Shown here piece by piece: positions 3,941 to 9,256 of a stretch of 25,869 nt of DNA (the first letter of the stretch is position 1; each line of letters opens with the position of its first letter). The notes under the pieces are model-generated. The model was not told the DNA's origin, did no database searches, and saw only the letters and a program-made list of their open reading frames with translations. Source of the stretch: Candidatus Thorarchaeota archaeon (GTDB taxonomy: Archaea; Asgardarchaeota; Thorarchaeia; Thorarchaeales; Thorarchaeaceae); assembly GCA_003345555.1 (NCBI GenBank), contig PRDJ01000080.1:1-25869 (forward strand). The letters run 5' to 3'. The translations under genes and the position numbers were made by a program.

Positions 3941-5854
3941 ATGACAACCAATCGAGATTCCTCAGCAGAAGGTACAAGAGTAACCCTCAAGCGGGACGTA
4001 GGTTGGTACGGCTCTTTCGCCATGGGCTACGCTGACGTAGGCGCTGACATCTATCTTGCTCTTGGCTTGGTGGCAGCGTATGCCGCAGGATGGGCTCCCA
4101 TTGCCTTTCTGATTGCGTCCGTCACGTATGTGGCGACGGGTCTTGCATATGCCGAACTAGCCACTGCTTACCCATACGCCGGCGGCGCTCACGTCTACGC
4201 GATGAAAGCATTCAATGACTTCGCAGGTTTCGGGGCCGGCTGGCTCGTAATGCTTGACTATACTGTGGATATGGCTCTCTTCTCAATAGCAACAACAGGC
4301 TACCTGACCTTTTTCCTCCCTTGGCTGAATGTGCTGACCGTTACCATCGGAGTCTTGGGCTTTCAGGTCACTCTTAGCGCCATGGGCCTGACCTCTTTCA
4401 CTATTGTTGTGGCTCTCATATGCATCAATATTATCGGTATCAAGGAATCATCTGGCTTGAACATGGTGATGGTTAGCCTGAGCCTCGTTGTGCTGTCCCT
4501 TGTGGCCATTGTGGGGCTGCTGTTCGCTTTTCGTCTCGATCTATTTGTGCTTCAGTTGTCTGTGGTGGGTGCCCCTCAACAGTTCGGCCACATATCGTAT
4601 GTGTCAGGATTGGGTCTTAACACGCAGAATCTCCTTTACGCCATCACTCTTGCGATGAGTTCGTTCATAGGTATAGAGTCGATAGCTCAGGCCGCCGAGG
4701 AGACCAAGAGGCCAGACAAGACAATTCCTCGGGCTACTAAGATGTCTGTCGTCTCAGTCTTGGTTTTCGCAGTGGGGCTATCAGTCCTCAGTATGGGGAT
4801 ACTCCCTTGGGATGTGCTGGCCGCTCATCTGGAAAGCCCCATTAGCACCCTTGCAGGCTCTTTCGCTTTCATAGGACCATTCATTGTGCCGGTGGTAGCA
4901 GGTGCGGGCTTTGCGATATGTCTCGTCTCTGCAAACACCGGAGTAATAGGGGTGTCAAGGGTTGTATTCTCGATGGGACGTTTTGGTCTCCTGCCGCGCT
5001 GGTTCTCGAAAATCAACCCTAGGACGCGGACACCCGTCCGAACCATTCTCATCTTCGGCCTGATTGGAGCAATCATGGCGCTTGTTGGACAACTTGACTG
5101 GGTTGCAGACCTCTACAACTTCGGAGCACTGCTGTCCTATTCTATCGTGAATGCGTCTCTGATTGTACTACGTCAAACGGACAAGGACACTCATCGTTCA
5201 TGGGAGGTACCCTTGAGCTTGAAGGTCAGCAGGCGTGGCCGCCTCTACAGAATCCCATTGTCCGCCATCGTTGGTATCGCTGCATGCTTGTCCATCTGGT
5301 CTCTTGTCATAGTCTTTCATCCGATGGGACGGGTCCTTGGTCTGACGTGGTTGAGCGTTGGAGTGCTGGCCTACGTGATCTATCGTCACGCGCTTAACAG
5401 ACCCCTCCTTTCGAAGGAAGCAGGGCGCTCGATAAAGCCCATGGCCTACAAGTTCAATGCACTTGTCTTGATTCGTCCCGAAGAGAAAGAGGAGGTCGTC
5501 GATTCTATCAGGGGCAGCCTGACCACTCAGTTCCGCCTAACGTTGATGAGTGTTATCCGTACTGGTCGCTGGCACATTCCTCTATCCGTGGCCGAACAGT
5601 ACAGGGAGCTGACGTTGCTCGATTTAGAGGAAATGGCTCATGCTCTCTCAGGGTTCGGCTTCGAAGCTTCAGTCCGGGTTGAGGTTGGCCCCTTAGCACG
5701 AGTAATCACTGACGCAGTCCTGTCACCCGAGTACGACTTTGTGGTTCTACCACTGAGGAAGGGCTTTAAGAAAGTACACAAGAAAGACGAAGAAGACATT
5801 GTGACGTTGGTTTCTTCCGTTGCACCTGGGAAGATTATGGTGGTAAGAAAATAA
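3941..5854 (+). CDS. APC-family amino acid/cation permease with C-terminal UspA-like soluble domain
   Basis: 637 aa. The N-terminal ~480 aa are hydrophobic with APC motifs (GADIY, YAELATAYPYAGG, GIESIAQAAEE, SRVVFSMGR..LP..FSKINPRTRTP). The last ~140 aa have a Usp-like pattern (ALVLIRP..LTLMSVI..VEVGPLARVITDAV...DFVVLP). Confidence 0.88.
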   Translation: MTTNRDSSAEGTRVTLKRDVGWYGSFAMGYADVGADIYLALGLVAAYAAGWAPIAFLIASVTYVATGLAYAELATAYPYAGGAHVYAMKAFNDFAGFGAGWLVMLDYTVDMALFSIATTGYLTFFLPWLNVLTVTIGVLGFQVTLSAMGLTSFTIVVALICINIIGIKESSGLNMVMVSLSLVVLSLVAIVGLLFAFRLDLFVLQLSVVGAPQQFGHISYVSGLGLNTQNLLYAITLAMSSFIGIESIAQAAEETKRPDKTIPRATKMSVVSVLVFAVGLSVLSMGILPWDVLAAHLESPISTLAGSFAFIGPFIVPVVAGAGFAICLVSANTGVIGVSRVVFSMGRFGLLPRWFSKINPRTRTPVRTILIFGLIGAIMALVGQLDWVADLYNFGALLSYSIVNASLIVLRQTDKDTHRSWEVPLSLKVSRRGRLYRIPLSAIVGIAACLSIWSLVIVFHPMGRVLGLTWLSVGVLAYVIYRHALNRPLLSKEAGRSIKPMAYKFNALVLIRPEEKEEVVDSIRGSLTTQFRLTLMSVIRTGRWHIPLSVAEQYRELTLLDLEEMAHALSGFGFEASVRVEVGPLARVITDAVLSPEYDFVVLPLRKGFKKVHKKDEEDIVTLVSSVAPGKIMVVRK

Positions 5855-6120
5855 TGCCCGGCATTCGAGTTATCCTGAGCGTATACATTGAGTCAAATCT
5901 CGAGGAAGTCGCAGACGCGCTCACTGAGATTCCTGAGGTTGTGGACGTCTTTGAGGTAACCGGGGAAGCGGACATAATAGCTTTCCTAGAGGCCGATGAC
6001 GTAATGCAGTTCCGCAATATTCTGAAGAACAACATCCTGAAGATACCGGGAATAAAGAGCACAGTATCAAGCGTCGTGATGTTCGTTCACAAGAAAGACG
6101 GCCAAGTAGTTGAAGAATGA
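5854..6120 (+). CDS. Stand-alone Lrp/AsnC ligand-binding (RAM) domain protein with no HTH (demi-FFRP type)
   Basis: LTEIPEVVDVFEVTGEADIIAFLEADDVMQFRNILKNNILKIPGIKSTVS is a typical AsnC C-terminal domain. Its ATG overlaps the permease TAA (taATG at 5852-5856). Confidence 0.85.
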   Translation: MPGIRVILSVYIESNLEEVADALTEIPEVVDVFEVTGEADIIAFLEADDVMQFRNILKNNILKIPGIKSTVSSVVMFVHKKDGQVVEE

Positions 6121-6139: not shown

Positions 6140-6562
6140 GTGGAAGAAGGTACCCGAGACTATGTCTTGATGCCATATTCCGGAGATATCGCCTACTCTG
6201 ACATGGTTGCTGCAATGCTCCCTCTCTTGAAATTCCAGACAAAAGCGCTGACTCTCTTTCATGTGATTGAAACTCCCATATCCGCTCCTCTTGACACGGA
6301 TGAGATGAAGGATCTCGTTGCCGCTGCAGAAGTCAAGATCAAGCCTCTTTCGGATTGGTTAAGCAAACAGGGATACCGCGTGCAAACCAAGGTCGCAGTA
6401 GCTAGGCATGTGAAGGATGCTATAATTGAAGAGGCAAATGACCCTCGCTACTCCTTGCTATTCATGTTGAAGCGCAGAAAAAGGCGGAAGCCACTCTCCA
6501 AAAGCGTCACAGAAGAAATCATTGGTCATGTGCAGCTTCCGGTGGTCACAATCCTCGTCTAG
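6140..6562 (+). CDS. Universal stress protein (UspA family)
   Basis: VLMPYSG..LTLFHVIE..VAVARHVKDAIIEEA...LLFMLKR..SVTEEIIGHVQLPVVTI follows the Usp fold pattern. Confidence 0.8.
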   Translation: MEEGTRDYVLMPYSGDIAYSDMVAAMLPLLKFQTKALTLFHVIETPISAPLDTDEMKDLVAAAEVKIKPLSDWLSKQGYRVQTKVAVARHVKDAIIEEANDPRYSLLFMLKRRKRRKPLSKSVTEEIIGHVQLPVVTILV

Positions 6563-6650: not shown

Positions 6651-7430
6651 CTACTCGCCAACAACTACTGCATCCACGAAAAGCTCGTACTTCTCGTCCT
6701 CGTCGAGGTTGTGCATGAGGACCTTTTCGACTTCGTCTTCCCCGCGTATTTCAAGGAGTCGTGACTGATACAGCACCTTAATTCCTGACTTCGCTAGCTT
6801 CTCCTGCAGAACCTTCGTCGTCTGGATCTCATTCTCAGGTGTAGATAGCACAACTCGTCCGGTGACCGCGGTGAGCTGAATTGCTGTTTCAATGGACTTA
6901 TCGCCCGTGTGGACAACCAGTACTCGCTTGTCTTTGAGCTCTTTGGGATCATTTACCATGATGTAAACTCCTTTACCTAGGAACTGGTCTCTGCCAATGG
7001 CGCATTCCGTTGGTTCAGCTGAATGCTTCTTTTCAGCCACTGGTTCTCCTGCCATCTTCGCACGATAGTTCTTGATTGCCTCATGCAGAGCATCAGCAGC
7101 TAGGTTGGAACAGTGCATCTTGATGGGCGGGAGTCCTTGAAGTTCGTCCGCCACATTCTGCCTCGTCACCTGCATTGCTTCGTCAAGAGTCATTCCCTTT
7201 ACGAGTTCGGTCGTCATGCTGCTTGTAGCGATTGCAGATCCGCACCCGAAAGTTCTGAACTTTGCTTCCACAATCCGGTCATCCTTGACTCTGATGAAGA
7301 CCTCCATCAGGTCGCCACATATGGGGTTGCCTACTATTCCGGAGGCTACGTCATCACCCTCCATGGTTCCGACATTCCTTGGATTGCGGAAATGGTCCAA
7401 TACTTTCTCGCTATATTGAGTTGACTTCAT
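6651..7430 (-). CDS. iscU: IscU/NifU-type Fe-S scaffold fused to a degenerate thioredoxin-reductase-like NAD(P)H-binding domain
   Basis: YSEKVLDHFRNPRNVG, NPICGD, FGCGSAIA and LPPIKMHCSNLA give all three scaffold Cys plus the Asp and His. About 115 extra C-terminal aa resemble TrxR. The ATG at 7430 is preferred over the track's GTG at 7451 because GGTGAT lies just upstream. Confidence 0.9.
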   Translation of the reverse strand: MKSTQYSEKVLDHFRNPRNVGTMEGDDVASGIVGNPICGDLMEVFIRVKDDRIVEAKFRTFGCGSAIATSSMTTELVKGMTLDEAMQVTRQNVADELQGLPPIKMHCSNLAADALHEAIKNYRAKMAGEPVAEKKHSAEPTECAIGRDQFLGKGVYIMVNDPKELKDKRVLVVHTGDKSIETAIQLTAVTGRVVLSTPENEIQTTKVLQEKLAKSGIKVLYQSRLLEIRGEDEVEKVLMHNLDEDEKYELFVDAVVVGE

Positions 7431-7437
7431 TTCAACA

Positions 7438-8607
7438 TCACCTTCCTGCACAAGTGTAAATGGGAGATAGTGTCCTCAAGTGGGCAACTACTCCCGGTAT
7501 TGCTTCGATTACTTTGTCTGCATCACTGTCAACATTGAATCGTCCAAAGGTTAGCTCAAGTGAACCGTGAGCCTCTTCGTGCACCAGACCGGTCGCTATC
7601 AGTGTGTGCGAGGGTTCCAGTGTCTTTGAACTGCATGCAGAGCCGGTAGCTACTGAGATGCCTTTGTCCTTCAATGAGAGCAGAATTGATTCTCCTTCGA
7701 TTCCGTCAAACCTGAAGTGTGCGTTACTGGCTAGACGTTCTGTCGGGTGGCCGTTCAGATGGCTGTCTGGCACATCCTGAAGCACACGCTTGATCACCTT
7801 GTCACGGTAATTCTTAAACCGACTGACTTCAGAGGGCATTTCCTTGGTCATGATTTCGGCCGCGGCCCGCATGCCTACGATTCCTGGGATATCTTCTGTT
7901 CCAGACCTAAGACCTCTCTCCTGCCCGCCGCCTATCATAATTGGGTTTACCCTGAACCCTTTCCTCATGTATAGGAGGCCAACGCCCTTTGGACCATAAA
8001 TGTCGTTGGAGGATAGGGACATCAAGTCTATGCTATCCCGGTTAACGTCAAGGTCCACTAGGCCCTCGGCGGCCACTGCGTCTGTGTGAAATGCGATGCC
8101 TCTCTCCTTTGCGATTTTTCCTATCTCTGCAATGGGCTGAACAGTGCCTATTTCATTGCTAGCGTACCCAACCGAAATGAGAATCGTGTTGTCTTTCAGT
8201 TTACGTTCGAGCTTGTCAACATGGACCAACCCATACTGATCCACAGGCACTTTCGTAATCTCGAAGCCTTGAGAAGCTAGGTACTTGGCTATGTTGTGAA
8301 TTGAGATATGCTCTATCTCCGAAATAACAATGTGATTCCCCTTCTTCTTGTTCTTCAGAGCATAACCCATGAGAGCGAGGTTAATGGACTCGGTCGCCCC
8401 AGAGGTGAACACAATATCGTCCGCGTCCGCATGGATGAACTTGGCAATCCTCTTTCTGCTATCCTCAAGGGCATCGGTTGCAGTGTCGCCAACCTTGTGG
8501 AGGGATGACGGATTTCCAAACCGGTCATGGAAATATGGCATCATCTCTTCTATCACCCTTGGGTCAACAGGCTTCGACGACTGGTAATCAAGGTAAACTT
8601 CGTCCAT
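7438..8607 (-). CDS. iscS: IscS/NifS-family cysteine desulfurase homologue with the PLP Lys replaced by Asp
   Basis: VYLDYQSS, FGNPSSLH, FTSGATES, EIEH, NEIGTVQP, GGGQERGLRSGT and ATGSACSS (catalytic Cys) are present. SSNDIYGPKG replaces SxHKxYGPKG. ATG at 8607 is preferred over 8637, which would overlap dsrE. Confidence 0.92.
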   Translation of the reverse strand: MDEVYLDYQSSKPVDPRVIEEMMPYFHDRFGNPSSLHKVGDTATDALEDSRKRIAKFIHADADDIVFTSGATESINLALMGYALKNKKKGNHIVISEIEHISIHNIAKYLASQGFEITKVPVDQYGLVHVDKLERKLKDNTILISVGYASNEIGTVQPIAEIGKIAKERGIAFHTDAVAAEGLVDLDVNRDSIDLMSLSSNDIYGPKGVGLLYMRKGFRVNPIMIGGGQERGLRSGTEDIPGIVGMRAAAEIMTKEMPSEVSRFKNYRDKVIKRVLQDVPDSHLNGHPTERLASNAHFRFDGIEGESILLSLKDKGISVATGSACSSKTLEPSHTLIATGLVHEEAHGSLELTFGRFNVDSDADKVIEAIPGVVAHLRTLSPIYTCAGR

Positions 8608-8627
8608 ATCCCCCAAACCCCCTTCGC

Positions 8628-9002
8628 CTAGAACCACATGGTTGCGTCCGCGTCTAATGCGAGGTCATTCAATGTAGCGGCACCCACTATCTTGACCCCA
8701 GGTATTAACTCAACCTTGTCCCATCCAAGCATTTGTTTCGATGCTTCACAGACGTAAATTGGTATGCCGGCTTTCAGAGTCTGGTTAATCATGTCAAGAA
8801 CGCTAGGAAAGCTACCCAGTTTGATCTTCTCGGCTGCACCAGGCTTCAAAATCCTGAGACCCGTTCCAAGATAGTACACCTTCGCATCAATATTCATTGC
8901 CTTCGCGCTCTGAGCCAGCACTAGTGGAGAGTATTGTCTCTCTGGGTTGTCGCTCGTCTGGACGTACAGAATGCTCTTCTTGCCTGTAATCTTCTTACTC
9001 AT
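8628..9002 (-). CDS. DsrE/DsrF-like sulfur-relay protein
   Basis: 124 aa with PLVLAQSAKAMNIDAKVYYLGTG..GIPIYVCEAS..ELIPGVKIVGAATL..ADATMWF. A single Cys sits at the position of the active DsrE Cys. Confidence 0.85.
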   Translation of the reverse strand: MSKKITGKKSILYVQTSDNPERQYSPLVLAQSAKAMNIDAKVYYLGTGLRILKPGAAEKIKLGSFPSVLDMINQTLKAGIPIYVCEASKQMLGWDKVELIPGVKIVGAATLNDLALDADATMWF

Positions 9003-9013
9003 TTTGAATCCAC

Positions 9014-9256
9014 CTACTTTTTCTTTCTAATCAGAAATCTTTGAACACCATCTTCCTGCTTCTCGTAGAGAATGAGTTCATTCCCTGTTCTCTTCGCAAA
9101 TACCTTCAAGTCCTCTTCAGCCGCAGGATCATCGGCTAGAACCTCTAGTATCTCTCCAACTTTCAGCTTGTCTATAGCTTCTCTTGTCTGGAATAGCGGC
9201 TGCGGACAAAACAGCCCAACACAATCCAGTGTTTCTGCGGGCTCGTTCTTCTTCAT
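9014..9256 (-). CDS. tusA: TusA/SirA-family sulfur carrier
   Basis: LDCVGLFCPQP (CPxP motif), GEILEVLADDPAAEEDL and a FLIRK C-terminus. An AGGAG SD lies upstream. Confidence 0.92.
   Translation of the reverse strand: MKKNEPAETLDCVGLFCPQPLFQTREAIDKLKVGEILEVLADDPAAEEDLKVFAKRTGNELILYEKQEDGVQRFLIRKKK

Follow-up and report, generated by a model that had tools for sequence, protein, structure and literature searches.

We found that a gene in a 25,869-nucleotide stretch of Thorarchaeota DNA (contig PRDJ01000080.1 of assembly GCA_003345555.1; hereafter, the window) encodes a canonical IscU scaffold that is joined by a flexible linker of ~18 residues to a ~115-residue thioredoxin reductase (TrxR)-like NAD(P)H domain. 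Judging from its sequence, this C-terminal domain is a cofactor-less remnant that would be non-catalytic. Taking all of the evidence jointly, the best explanation, which we favor with moderate confidence, is that a whole reductase was once fused to IscU, that its FAD domain was lost, and that the remnant now serves as a cis-acting docking module for IscS. A literature search, in which coverage of subscription journals was mostly lacking, returned no description of either the fusion or its gene cassette, and the joining of IscU to a TrxR-like remnant is apparently undescribed in the searchable literature.

The ISC and NIF systems are regarded as descendants of minimal IscS-IscU (MIS) systems, the least studied of the Fe-S assembly machines, and how a lysine-less, desulfurase-dead IscS is supplied with sulfur and electrons is a question posed in the field (PMC8918507; PMC13066941). 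A large subset of MIS systems, spanning both domains of life in which we found the fusion, bears an extra, unannotated scaffold domain, whose inferred history can be traced from a whole reductase to a stripped docking module. The predicted interface with IscS is concrete and mutable, and it offers defined constructs and point mutants for probing assembly and its regulation. If the docking reading is true, the remnant would be a clean case in which a domain of an enzyme has become a module for binding proteins.

The fusion gene and the identity of its C-terminal domain

The iscU fusion gene lies at 6651..7430 on the minus strand and, according to the ORF list and its translation, encodes 259 aa from an ATG at 7430. 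The ORF is open further, from a GTG at 7451 (ORF 6651..7451, minus strand). However, Met8 of this longer ORF is the ATG at 7430, and because 58 of 58 aligned homologs begin at the equivalent of Met8, the GTG was rejected as the start codon and the ATG at 7430 is likely the true start. Residue numbers in the domains (e.g., 151-266) count along the longer ORF. The IscU (NifU_N) scaffold domain occupies residues 12-133 (7053..7418, minus strand) and is matched over its whole length by the family profile (PF01592, E 1.7e-48), while TIGR03419 scores 184.5 bits, slightly below its cut-off of 187.9. The Cys, Asp, and His ligands (C45, D47, C70, H113, and C114) and the LPPVK-type motif, here LPPIK, are intact in the window protein and invariant in 59 sequences, and the scaffold shares 75-78% identity with unfused archaeal IscU, including that of Bathyarchaeota. 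It is followed by a charged, disordered linker that ends in Cys150 (residues 134-150; 7002..7052, minus strand; pLDDT <50 at 142-150), and then by the remnant, which lacks both an FAD domain and a CxxC and was assigned by fold and homology (residues 151-266; 6654..7001, minus strand). A preliminary description of the sequence had placed the remnant at 6651-6995, which spans residues 153-266 and the stop codon; the motifs GRDQFLGKGVYIMVND, KDKRVLVVHTGDKSIETAIQL, STPEN, IKVLYQSRLLEIRGEDEVEKV, and ELFVDAVVVGE are all found in the minus-strand ORF 6651..7451.

The likeness of this domain to TrxR is far above chance. It matches the NCBIfam model for thioredoxin-disulfide reductase (TIGR01292) at model positions 119-231 of 300 with an E-value of 2.2e-17, reaches 30.1 bits with Pfam PF00070 (Pyr_redox; cut-off 22), and finds residues 121-242 of the TrxR structure 2q7v in a phmmer search of the PDB (E 2.5e-8). 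Modeled by itself with AF2 (pLDDT 86.5, pTM 0.81), the domain is matched by Foldseek to the NADPH domains of TrxR, FNR, and AhpF with TM-scores of 0.85-0.88 and a probability of 1.00 throughout. All of these searches agree with the earlier proposal of a TrxR NAD(P)H-domain remnant at the C-terminus of IscU, and such strong profile and Foldseek matches leave that proposal unrefuted.

Changes in the catalytic motifs were read from an alignment with the two TrxRs of the same genome. Relative to these, CATC is replaced by IMVN with a one-residue deletion, GGGNTA by HTGDKS, and HRRD by STPE, and the domain stops exactly at the point where the TrxR chain re-enters the FAD domain; the substitutions of GGG by HTG and of HRR by STP are thus present as previously described. 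Neither segment of the FAD domain (N-terminal GxGxxG, C-terminal GD motif) is present, the TIGR01292 match being limited to the stretch given above, and this part of the preliminary description also holds. The redox-active CxxC is absent from the remnant (IMVN here, variable across the family), and the NADPH motifs GxGxxA and HRR are not intact in the window protein. The first Gly of GxGxxA is kept in none of 53 family members, where it is usually Asp, and the second Gly and a small third residue are present in all 53 parsed sequences; more distant members have lost the second Gly too (EFDQKS, YKDNKS, HRSDES). Because the FAD domain, GGGDSA, and HRR are all absent, the window protein is presumably unable to carry flavin or to oxidize NADPH in the known manner. 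The domain may still bind some phosphate ligand, since GxGxxA has for the most part preserved its second Gly and its small residue. With no FAD domain, no redox cysteines, and a degenerate dinucleotide motif, the domain fits the repurposed Rossmann module that had been suggested.

Pfam and NCBIfam profiles revealed no ferredoxin-like or Nfu domain in the protein, and TIGR02000 matches at positions 3-124 of 290 only. A split TrxR with a separate FAD-domain partner was also considered and rejected, as a search of the genome found no FAD-domain-only gene; the same search found two complete canonical TrxRs and other flavoproteins, and no FNR-like homolog.

Distribution of the fusion and its gene cassette

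The fusion is widespread. It was found in ~275 species representatives, from Asgard archaea, Thermoplasmata, and many anaerobic bacterial phyla, and it also occurs on closed chromosomes; a count among Asgard genomes gave 148 of 301. It is therefore not unique to this assembly, an outcome on which the preliminary description had made its claim depend, and the fusion is genuine rather than an assembly artifact. Mean column identity is 74-79% among 59 Thor-type sequences, and 13 domain columns are invariant across the family at about 45-50% identity; the fusion is under strong purifying selection. Matches of 150-200 aa among the species representatives were rejected as free-standing domains, as they mostly start at the internal Met of KMHCSNLAADAL and represent truncated gene calls. 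Databases name proteins of this kind just NifU/IscU and leave the extra domain unannotated.

In the window, an iscS homolog (7438..8637, minus strand; PF00266; probable start ATG 8607) lies directly upstream of iscU, and the same order is seen in related loci. Such a pairing of iscS and iscU, with chaperones, ferredoxin, and carriers absent, is characteristic of MIS systems, and the window locus shares it. Two further genes on the minus strand encode a DsrE-like sulfur carrier (8628..9002; 124 aa, pI 9.2; PF02635, E 1.7e-16) and TusA with a CPxP cysteine motif (9014..9256; 80 aa; PF01206, E 1.6e-24). Fused IscU is nearly always found in such a tusA-dsrE-iscS-iscU cassette: 80 loci were kept, of which 75 have both domains in one ORF, most loci have TusA-DsrE-IscS upstream, and ~9 fused cassettes are without DsrE. 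At the PLP site of the window IscS, Asn-Asp replaces His-Lys (SSNDIYGPKG) and the cysteine of the GSAC loop is retained, and the PLP-Lys site of the cassette IscS reads N-D or N-E in 68 of 68 readable sequences. By analogy with the Archaeoglobus fulgidus protein (PMC8918507), the cassette IscS would be desulfurase-dead.

A partnership of the domain with TusA or DsrE had looked likely from the first few loci. Yet TusA-DsrE-IscS also accompanies unfused IscU (L109, L114, L121, and L122), and co-occurrence was dropped as an argument for these proteins as the domain's specific partner; the sulfur carrier proposed earlier as a partner loses ground with it. A further apparently unfused example in Thermoplasmata (L111) was rejected, as an assembly gap of Ns cuts the gene. 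DsrE is the sole basic protein of the cassette, and the remnant domain is acidic, with a net charge of about -6. In a single wetland metatranscriptome (n = 1), short contigs match parts of all four cassette genes, although DNA carry-over is possible and the uncovered stretches carry no meaning.

Evolutionary origin

In the tree of NAD(P)H domains, the short domains group together as a single clade (100/100), which sits on a long stem within a CxxC-less TrxR-like clade, and the short domains, the full-length fusions, and free CxxC-less proteins together split from CxxC-containing TrxRs at 100/99. This placement suggests that the domain descends from CxxC-less, ferredoxin-NADP-reductase-like flavoproteins. 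Since the nearest full-length relatives already lack CxxC, the change to IMVN, as described earlier, stands as a substitution relative to TrxR in the alignment, but not as a loss within this protein; FAD domain loss, rather than CxxC loss, appears to have shaped the window protein. The best structural matches are likewise TrxR-like FNRs (Thermus 2ZBW, Bacillus subtilis YumC 3LZW, and Bacillus cereus FNR 6GAS; TM 0.86-0.87), which share a CxxC-less GVYY-type strand with the remnant and in whose CxxC-less clade the remnant nests. These enzymes possess the two-segment FAD domain, GGGDSA, and HRR, all of which are absent from the window protein.

Full-length IscU-flavoprotein fusions are extant, both in Jordarchaeia (P0122-P0136, 448 aa; P0122 from locus L019) and in a metagenomic sequence (P0270, 443 aa) whose gene adjoins a flavodoxin gene. 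IscU is N-terminal in these proteins, the flavoprotein module is TrxR-like and CxxC-less, and outside the family itself no sequences match the C-domain profile better (71-78 bits). They have K225, an aromatic residue at 255, and a hydrophobic residue at 258 in common with the short fusions. Unlike the window protein, they retain the FAD domain, and P0270 has GGGNSA and HRK as well; by these motifs they are plausibly active reductases, of which the window protein would be a stripped derivative. The NAD(P)H-domain tree leaves short and full-length fusions as a polytomy and was set aside as proof that the two are sisters. The signal comes instead from the IscS tree, in which the IscS proteins of the short fusions form one clade (98) and those of the full-length fusions, which have Leu at both 337 and 342, are its sister (98). 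A stepwise history may thus be proposed, in which a whole FNR-like, CxxC-less relative of TrxR was fused to IscU, as in Jordarchaeia and P0270, and probably served as a built-in electron source, whereupon the FAD domain would have been shed in one lineage, leaving the NAD(P)H domain to serve a purpose outside redox chemistry.

Predicted docking on IscS and alternative explanations

Based on modeling, the leftover domain probably clamps the scaffold onto IscS and performs no redox chemistry. Its conserved face would consist of the N-terminal edges of the Rossmann strands and the YELFVD hairpin, on the side facing away from the former nucleotide crevice. The remnant is predicted to bind the IscS helix just past the catalytic Cys loop (I337-E345, which we take to correspond to R340-L348 in E. 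coli), next to where IscU binds, and would provide a second anchor for IscU on the desulfurase-dead IscS. It would also mask the surface that is used in E. coli by CyaY, IscX, ThiI, and partly TusA, and the linker, with its frequent cysteine, would be held near the assembly site. In E. coli, the R340E variant of IscS loses binding of ThiI and IscX and shows lowered binding of TusA and CyaY, with IscU binding intact, and E347, near R340, contacts IscU (PMC2854127).

An ESMFold2 complex of the IscS dimer with the isolated domain scored 0.66, compared with 0.00 for the best control; this score is a model confidence for a kind of complex with no solved counterpart, and it was obtained with our own alignments, which carry conservation signal too, in a job format unlike that of the calibration, where 58 of 80 solved complexes attained this score mark versus 2 of 110 mismatched pairs. 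The runs agree on at least 90% of contacts, with a partner pLDDT of at least 87. The predicted docking face includes R176, R199, V201, K225, L227, E242, K243, N248, and Y255-D260, and the 18-residue interface holds 7 of the 13 family-invariant domain residues (hypergeometric P 5e-4). Several of these positions set the fused forms apart from free enzymes: position 225 is Lys in 31/31 fused forms versus Glu in 16/22 free enzymes, and positions 255 (Y/F in 31/31) and 258 (F/Y/V in 30/31) are variable or polar in free enzymes. On the other side of the interface, the residue at position 342 of IscS is always a Leu, Val, or Ile among the 64 partners of short fusions, as it is in the Jordarchaeia partner, whereas all 16 IscS proteins whose IscU is unfused or absent have K, N, P, S, A, or Q there; at position 337, the fused set has I/M/L and the others have mostly Arg; and E97 is present in 64/64 of the fused set and variable otherwise, all of these counts amounting to roughly one evolutionary event because the two-sided signature maps to one and the same clade of the IscS tree. 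In the sequences compared, the matching hydrophobic IscS substitutions thus appear to be confined to partners of fused IscU. The preliminary description had offered the domain as a docking surface for a reductase or sulfur carrier; modeling and the two-sided signatures instead best favor IscS.

Docking of a different partner (TusA, DsrE, a ferredoxin or flavodoxin, or a free reductase) that brings sulfur or electrons to the scaffold would be consistent with the presence of TusA throughout the cassettes and usually of DsrE, with an acidic domain beside a uniquely basic DsrE, and with FNR-like ancestors, one full-length fusion lying beside a flavodoxin gene. We nevertheless consider it unlikely, as the loci with unfused IscU and the cassettes without DsrE break the association, and the residues specific to fused forms pair with reciprocal changes in IscS. 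Alternatively, Cys150 might be the key element, as an additional relay for persulfide or as the fourth ligand of a cluster, and the domain would then only position it. This cysteine is invariant in the 59 Thor-type sequences. Across the family, ~45 of 59 members have a linker Cys, which in most members other than the Thor-type lies at a fixed distance of 15-18 residues ahead of GxGV; the Thor-type Cys occupies another position, which suggests that it was gained independently. The fourth [2Fe-2S] ligand in A. fulgidus, moreover, is an IscS cysteine, external to IscU (PMC13066941). However, the domain is kept without a linker Cys in several bacterial members (L031, L032, L052, L055, L089, L053, and L101) and in P0244, P0247, and P0248, and we consider this account, too, improbable. 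Such a role for the cysteine would fit alongside the docking model.

The ligand sensor of the preliminary description, here a sensor of NAD(P)H, ADP-ribose, or another nucleotide that tunes assembly to redox state, gains something from the predicted intact Rossmann fold and from the glycine and small residue that persist in GxGxxA. It is disfavored because conservation falls elsewhere than on the old nucleotide crevice, the family-invariant residues lying on the opposite face of the sheet; with the first Gly never kept and usually Asp, HRR replaced, and even the second Gly gone from distant members, we think it quite improbable. Less probable still is a dimerization module that pairs two IscU, for example to couple two [2Fe-2S] clusters into one [4Fe-4S] cluster, even though surface is newly exposed once the FAD domain is lost and dimers of archaeal IscU have been described (PMC13066941). 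The acidic charge of the domain speaks against such pairing. To our knowledge, the NADPH domains of TrxR-type enzymes do not take part in the dimer interface either. As for a neutral fossil or an assembly chimera without function, the loss of every catalytic motif is what one would expect, but occurrence in so many species of two domains of life, closed chromosomes included, the invariant columns, the long retention of the short domains as a single clade, and the matching pieces in the metatranscriptome make it scarcely credible, and we regard it as refuted by distribution and conservation.

Extending the docking model, the cassette could be an Fe-S assembly machine of a distinct kind, horizontally mobile and independent of cysteine, although in all its parts together this seems rather doubtful. 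Sulfur would enter such a machine through TusA/DsrE or as sulfide, and the dead reductase domain would be a built-in, frataxin/IscX-like gate on IscS near the Cys loop, controlling carrier access and setting the linker cysteine at the assembly site. The full-length flavoprotein ancestors would then fill the place of the missing electron donor in minimal ISC systems.

Comparison with known systems

The best PDB match to the window IscS is A. fulgidus IscS2 (4EB5; 451 bits), which has an identical SSNDIYGPKGV motif; structures of A. fulgidus IscS2-IscU are available (PDB 4EB5, 4EB7, and 4HVK, and the D199K variant 4R5F). The window IscS has the traits of this inactive type, namely Asp at the PLP-Lys site and a retained loop Cys, and the cluster ligands of A. 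fulgidus IscU are the same as those of the window IscU. Unlike the window fusion, A. fulgidus IscU is a single-domain protein of 153 aa without a C-terminal domain, and A. fulgidus IscS has Met and Lys where the IscS of fused cassettes has Ile337 and Leu/Val342. We know of no described linkage of the A. fulgidus system to TusA-DsrE. A. fulgidus IscS is reportedly without desulfurase activity and reportedly supplies a Cys that ligates the IscU-bound [2Fe-2S] cluster (PMC8918507).

Three-domain NifU resembles the window protein in having an N-terminal IscU-type scaffold with added C-terminal modules. These are, however, a ferredoxin-like central domain and a C-terminal Nfu domain in NifU, whereas the module in the window protein differs in fold and binds no cluster. 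With regard to CyaY/frataxin and IscX, which bind E. coli IscS, the docking surface predicted here takes in the R340 equivalent, and both are acidic like the window domain, although the latter has no homology to frataxin or IscX. Whereas CyaY and IscX place an acidic protein on a basic patch, the predicted contact in the window proteins has a hydrophobic core (Ile/Leu on IscS) and would be tethered in cis.

The fusion protein and its two domains

An ORF of 266 residues on the minus strand (6651..7451) encodes an IscU fusion protein; the gene itself most likely covers 6651..7430 (259 aa), because 58 of 58 aligned homologues begin at Met8 of this ORF, whose numbering is used here. A complete IscU scaffold occupies residues 12-133 (PF01592, E 1.7e-48); across the aligned homologues, neither its three cluster cysteines, nor its Asp and His ligands, nor its LPPIK motif varies. 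A disordered linker of about 18 residues separates the scaffold from a second domain. In the profile search that the preliminary description proposed as a check, residues 151-266 matched TIGR01292 (thioredoxin-disulfide reductase, TrxR) only over positions 119-231 of 300, i.e., the NADPH domain (E 2.2e-17), and scored above the Pfam Pyr_redox cut-off; they also resemble solved TrxRs by sequence (2q7v, E 2.5e-8). Modelled by itself with AlphaFold2 (pLDDT 86.5, pTM 0.81), the domain matches the NADPH domains of TrxR, AhpF, and TrxR-like ferredoxin-NADP reductases (FNR) with TM 0.85-0.88. Aligned with the two genuine TrxRs of its own genome, the domain has IMVN in place of CATC, HTGDKS in place of GGGNTA, and STPE in place of HRRD, and the protein ends at the exact point where the chain would re-enter the FAD domain. 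The original observation of a TrxR NAD(P)H-domain remnant on IscU, with its motifs replaced, is therefore correct in every detail.

This architecture is present in no solved structure, and we found no description of the fusion or its gene cassette in the literature searched; source annotations call the fusion proteins NifU or IscU scaffold proteins. We rate the protein as part of an IscU/minimal IscS-IscU (MIS) system with an exapted pseudo-enzyme domain; recent reviews describe MIS as the least studied system.

The cassette and its IscS

The fused iscU is the last gene of a tight four-gene unit, in which it is preceded by tusA (9014-9256), a dsrE-like gene (8628-9002), and iscS (7438-8637). 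The order tusA-dsrE-iscS ahead of fused IscU recurs in most related loci, with dsrE absent from about nine. TusA-DsrE is also found with unfused IscU, so these carriers are not tied to the domain. The IscS has Asn-Asp in place of the desulfurase His-Lys, and its best solved relative, A. fulgidus IscS2 (451 bits), shares this motif. A. fulgidus IscS2 was reported to lack desulfurase activity and to serve as a co-scaffold, supplying a Cys ligand (PMC8918507). N-D or N-E occupies the PLP-lysine position in 68 of 68 readable cassette IscS, and also in IscS adjoining unfused IscU in Bathyarchaeota and other Asgard families; the trait is therefore older than the fusion. In a single wetland metatranscriptome, each of the four cassette genes is matched in part by contigs at 90-100% identity, one of which spans the tusA-dsrE junction and another of which includes the fusion gene's 3' end; this is weak evidence that the cassette is expressed.

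Several variants were seen around such loci. One operon (L109:1-3399) contains a glutaredoxin-like gene, TrxR, tusA, dsrE, iscS (N-D), and an unfused iscU (132 aa); its TrxR, a whole reductase encoded as a separate gene linked to the cassette, has CATC and carries NIND in place of HRR. Two loci of Asgard family f16 (L123:3219-4802 and L125:388-1986) have IscU ORFs of 528-533 aa whose IscU match falls into two parts (residues 6-39 and 38-128); between them, exactly at the first cluster-cysteine region, lies an insert of about 380 aa that looks like an intein. Downstream of the fusion gene, the convergent neighbours on the plus strand encode a stand-alone AsnC/Lrp ligand-binding domain protein of 88 aa with no HTH (5854-6120) and a universal stress protein (6140-6562), neither of which is conserved in related loci.

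Distribution

The C-terminal part has 281 relatives among 5.8 billion proteins searched; the best 120 of these all have an N-terminal IscU and a length of about 259 aa, and those with names come from Thorarchaeota or Sifarchaeia MAGs. Occurrence of the same fusion elsewhere, a further check proposed at the outset, was borne out by 275 relatives in a scan of one genome per prokaryotic species. The domain is present in 148 of the 301 Asgard genomes sampled, and in the main families, in 69/76, 64/68, and 5/7 genomes. Archaeal hosts comprise Asgard lineages (Thor-, Hermod-, Odin-, Hod-, and Promethearchaeota) and Thermoplasmata. The bacterial hosts are numerous anaerobes, which include Syntrophales/Smithella, Desulfobacteraceae, Thermodesulfobacteriota, Thermoleophilia, Coriobacteriia, and Gaiellales, as well as Aminicenantes, Zixibacteria, WOR-3, Spirochaetota, Fibrobacterota, and Aerophobetes, and closed chromosomes are among the host records. 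Of the 80 loci kept, 75 encode IscU and the domain in a single ORF of about 260-270 aa, and the remainder are at contig ends or frameshifted. The wider family is only 43-51% identical to the reference member, yet 13 columns are invariant. Overall, the fusion is neither an artefact nor a local feature.

In two Actinomycetes MAGs (L070:2992-3348 and L107:2935-3327) the C-terminal domain lies in a separate short ORF, and iscS and dsrE are fragmented too; these are probably frameshift errors of long-read assembly rather than naturally split genes. In a metagenomic protein of 160 aa (P0243), a fragment of the domain is followed by a tail of about 55 residues, almost all Asp and Glu.

Probable origin from FNR-like flavoproteins

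A split enzyme was rejected as an explanation, since the genome's two TrxRs are both complete and it encodes no stand-alone FAD domain. The second of these TrxRs (L002:1459-2397, contig C76) has CALC, GGSDSA, and YRGE in place of HRR, and is similar to TrxR types of anaerobes that do not depend on NADPH.

Jordarchaeia encode a 448-aa fusion of IscU with a complete TrxR-like flavoprotein; it has a TTG start, an FAD domain, no CxxC, and GNGDQA (L019:4010-5356 in genome G038; also P0123 and P0130). NCBI records hold only a 326-aa 'NAD(P)/FAD-dependent oxidoreductase' from an internal Met, leaving the IscU half unannotated, and a further 136-aa gene lies between iscS and the fusion at L019. A second full-length type, the metagenomic P0270 (443 aa; L022:592-2356), has GGGNSA and HRK intact and is immediately followed by a flavodoxin gene, which suggests an electron route from NADPH through FAD and flavodoxin to the scaffold.

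The best non-family matches to a profile of the short, FAD-less domains are the NADPH domains of these full-length fusions (71-78 bits); free CxxC-less relatives score 49-70 bits and canonical TrxRs 20-56 bits. The maximum-likelihood tree unites all short domains in a single, long-stemmed clade (100/100) inside a CxxC-less clade, which is separated from the CxxC TrxRs at 100/99 and whose internal branching order the tree does not resolve. The preliminary description treated the replacement of CxxC by IMVN as a loss; because the short domains nest in the CxxC-less clade, its absence is instead the ancestral state of this FNR-like clade. In an independent IscS tree, the IscS of short fusions form one clade (98), whose sister (98) is the IscS of the Jordarchaeia full-length fusion. 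The simplest reading is that an FNR-like flavoprotein would have joined IscU once, that both FAD segments would then have been lost in one descendant, and that the FAD-less fusion cassette may have spread horizontally. The IscS encoded here groups with bacterial cassettes, not with most other Asgard ones, which points to passage of the whole cassette between domains of life; its neighbours in the tree (L031, L060, L079, L089, and L093) are cassettes of Deltaproteobacteria, Fibrobacterota, Aerophobetes, and Aminicenantes.

Predicted docking on IscS and possible role of the remnant

From custom alignments built on 24 cassettes, the complex of an IscS dimer and the domain was predicted with a score of 0.66 (best control 0.00); in the calibration set, from which this job differs, 58 of 80 solved complexes scored this high, as did 2 of 110 mismatched pairs. 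Three runs had at least 90% of contacts in common, with partner pLDDT of at least 87. No similar complex is found among solved structures, so a score that merely reproduces a known one is unlikely. The model supports, short of demonstrating, binding of the domain to IscS. On the domain side, the predicted interface (174, 176, 198-199, 201, 225, 227, 238-239, 242-243, 248, and 255-260) includes seven of the 13 invariant residues (P 5e-4), and three of its positions differ specifically in the forms fused to IscU, whether full-length or short: 225 is Lys in 31/31 fused forms and Glu in 16/22 free enzymes, 255 is Tyr or Phe in 31/31 and variable in free enzymes, and 258 is hydrophobic (Phe, Tyr, or Val) in 30/31 and polar in free enzymes. 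The predicted IscS side comprises E97, 121-124, 135-136, and 337-345, the last being the helix straight after the Cys loop. At position 342, Leu, Val, or Ile is found in 64/64 short-fusion partners and in Jordarchaeia, and K, N, P, S, A, or Q in 16/16 IscS with unfused or no IscU. The fused set has an aliphatic residue at 337, where Arg predominates elsewhere, and never departs from E97, a position that is variable elsewhere. These reciprocal changes would fit a hydrophobic contact flanked by the modelled salt bridges D123-R176 and E345-K225. Because all of them map to a single clade, they count as about one evolutionary event.

In a colinear alignment anchored on Cys328, L333, S336, R340, D346, E347, and H350, IscS I337 aligns with E. 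coli R340, and E344 with E347. The E. coli substitution R340E eliminates binding of ThiI and IscX, weakens that of TusA and CyaY, and leaves that of IscU unaffected; E347 contacts IscU (PMC2854127). The predicted site would therefore adjoin the IscU site, within reach of the linker, and overlap the surface used by other IscS clients.

On balance, we favour the remnant as a cis-acting clamp or gate, an idea to which the two-sided residue evidence and the IscS tree are added here. It would form a second anchor of IscU on a catalytically dead IscS, might restrict carriers such as TusA from the Cys loop, and would hold the linker close to the assembly site. Less probable alternatives are that the remnant binds another partner, senses a ligand, acts as a dimeriser or, least likely, is a fossil. 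No member keeps the first Gly of GxGxxA, which is usually replaced by Asp; HRR is missing, and distant members lack the second Gly as well. Judged by these motifs, selection has not kept the old nucleotide crevice. The family-invariant residues R176, R199, V200, K225, G237, E242, E251, Y255, L257, and D260 lie mainly at the N-terminal edges of the parallel strands and in the YELFVD hairpin. Apart from the proposed clamp, a cysteine is common in the linker: the Thor-type subfamily always has it, as C150, most other members have one at a different fixed position, and several bacterial members lack it. This cysteine may contribute a relay or ligand role in some lineages.
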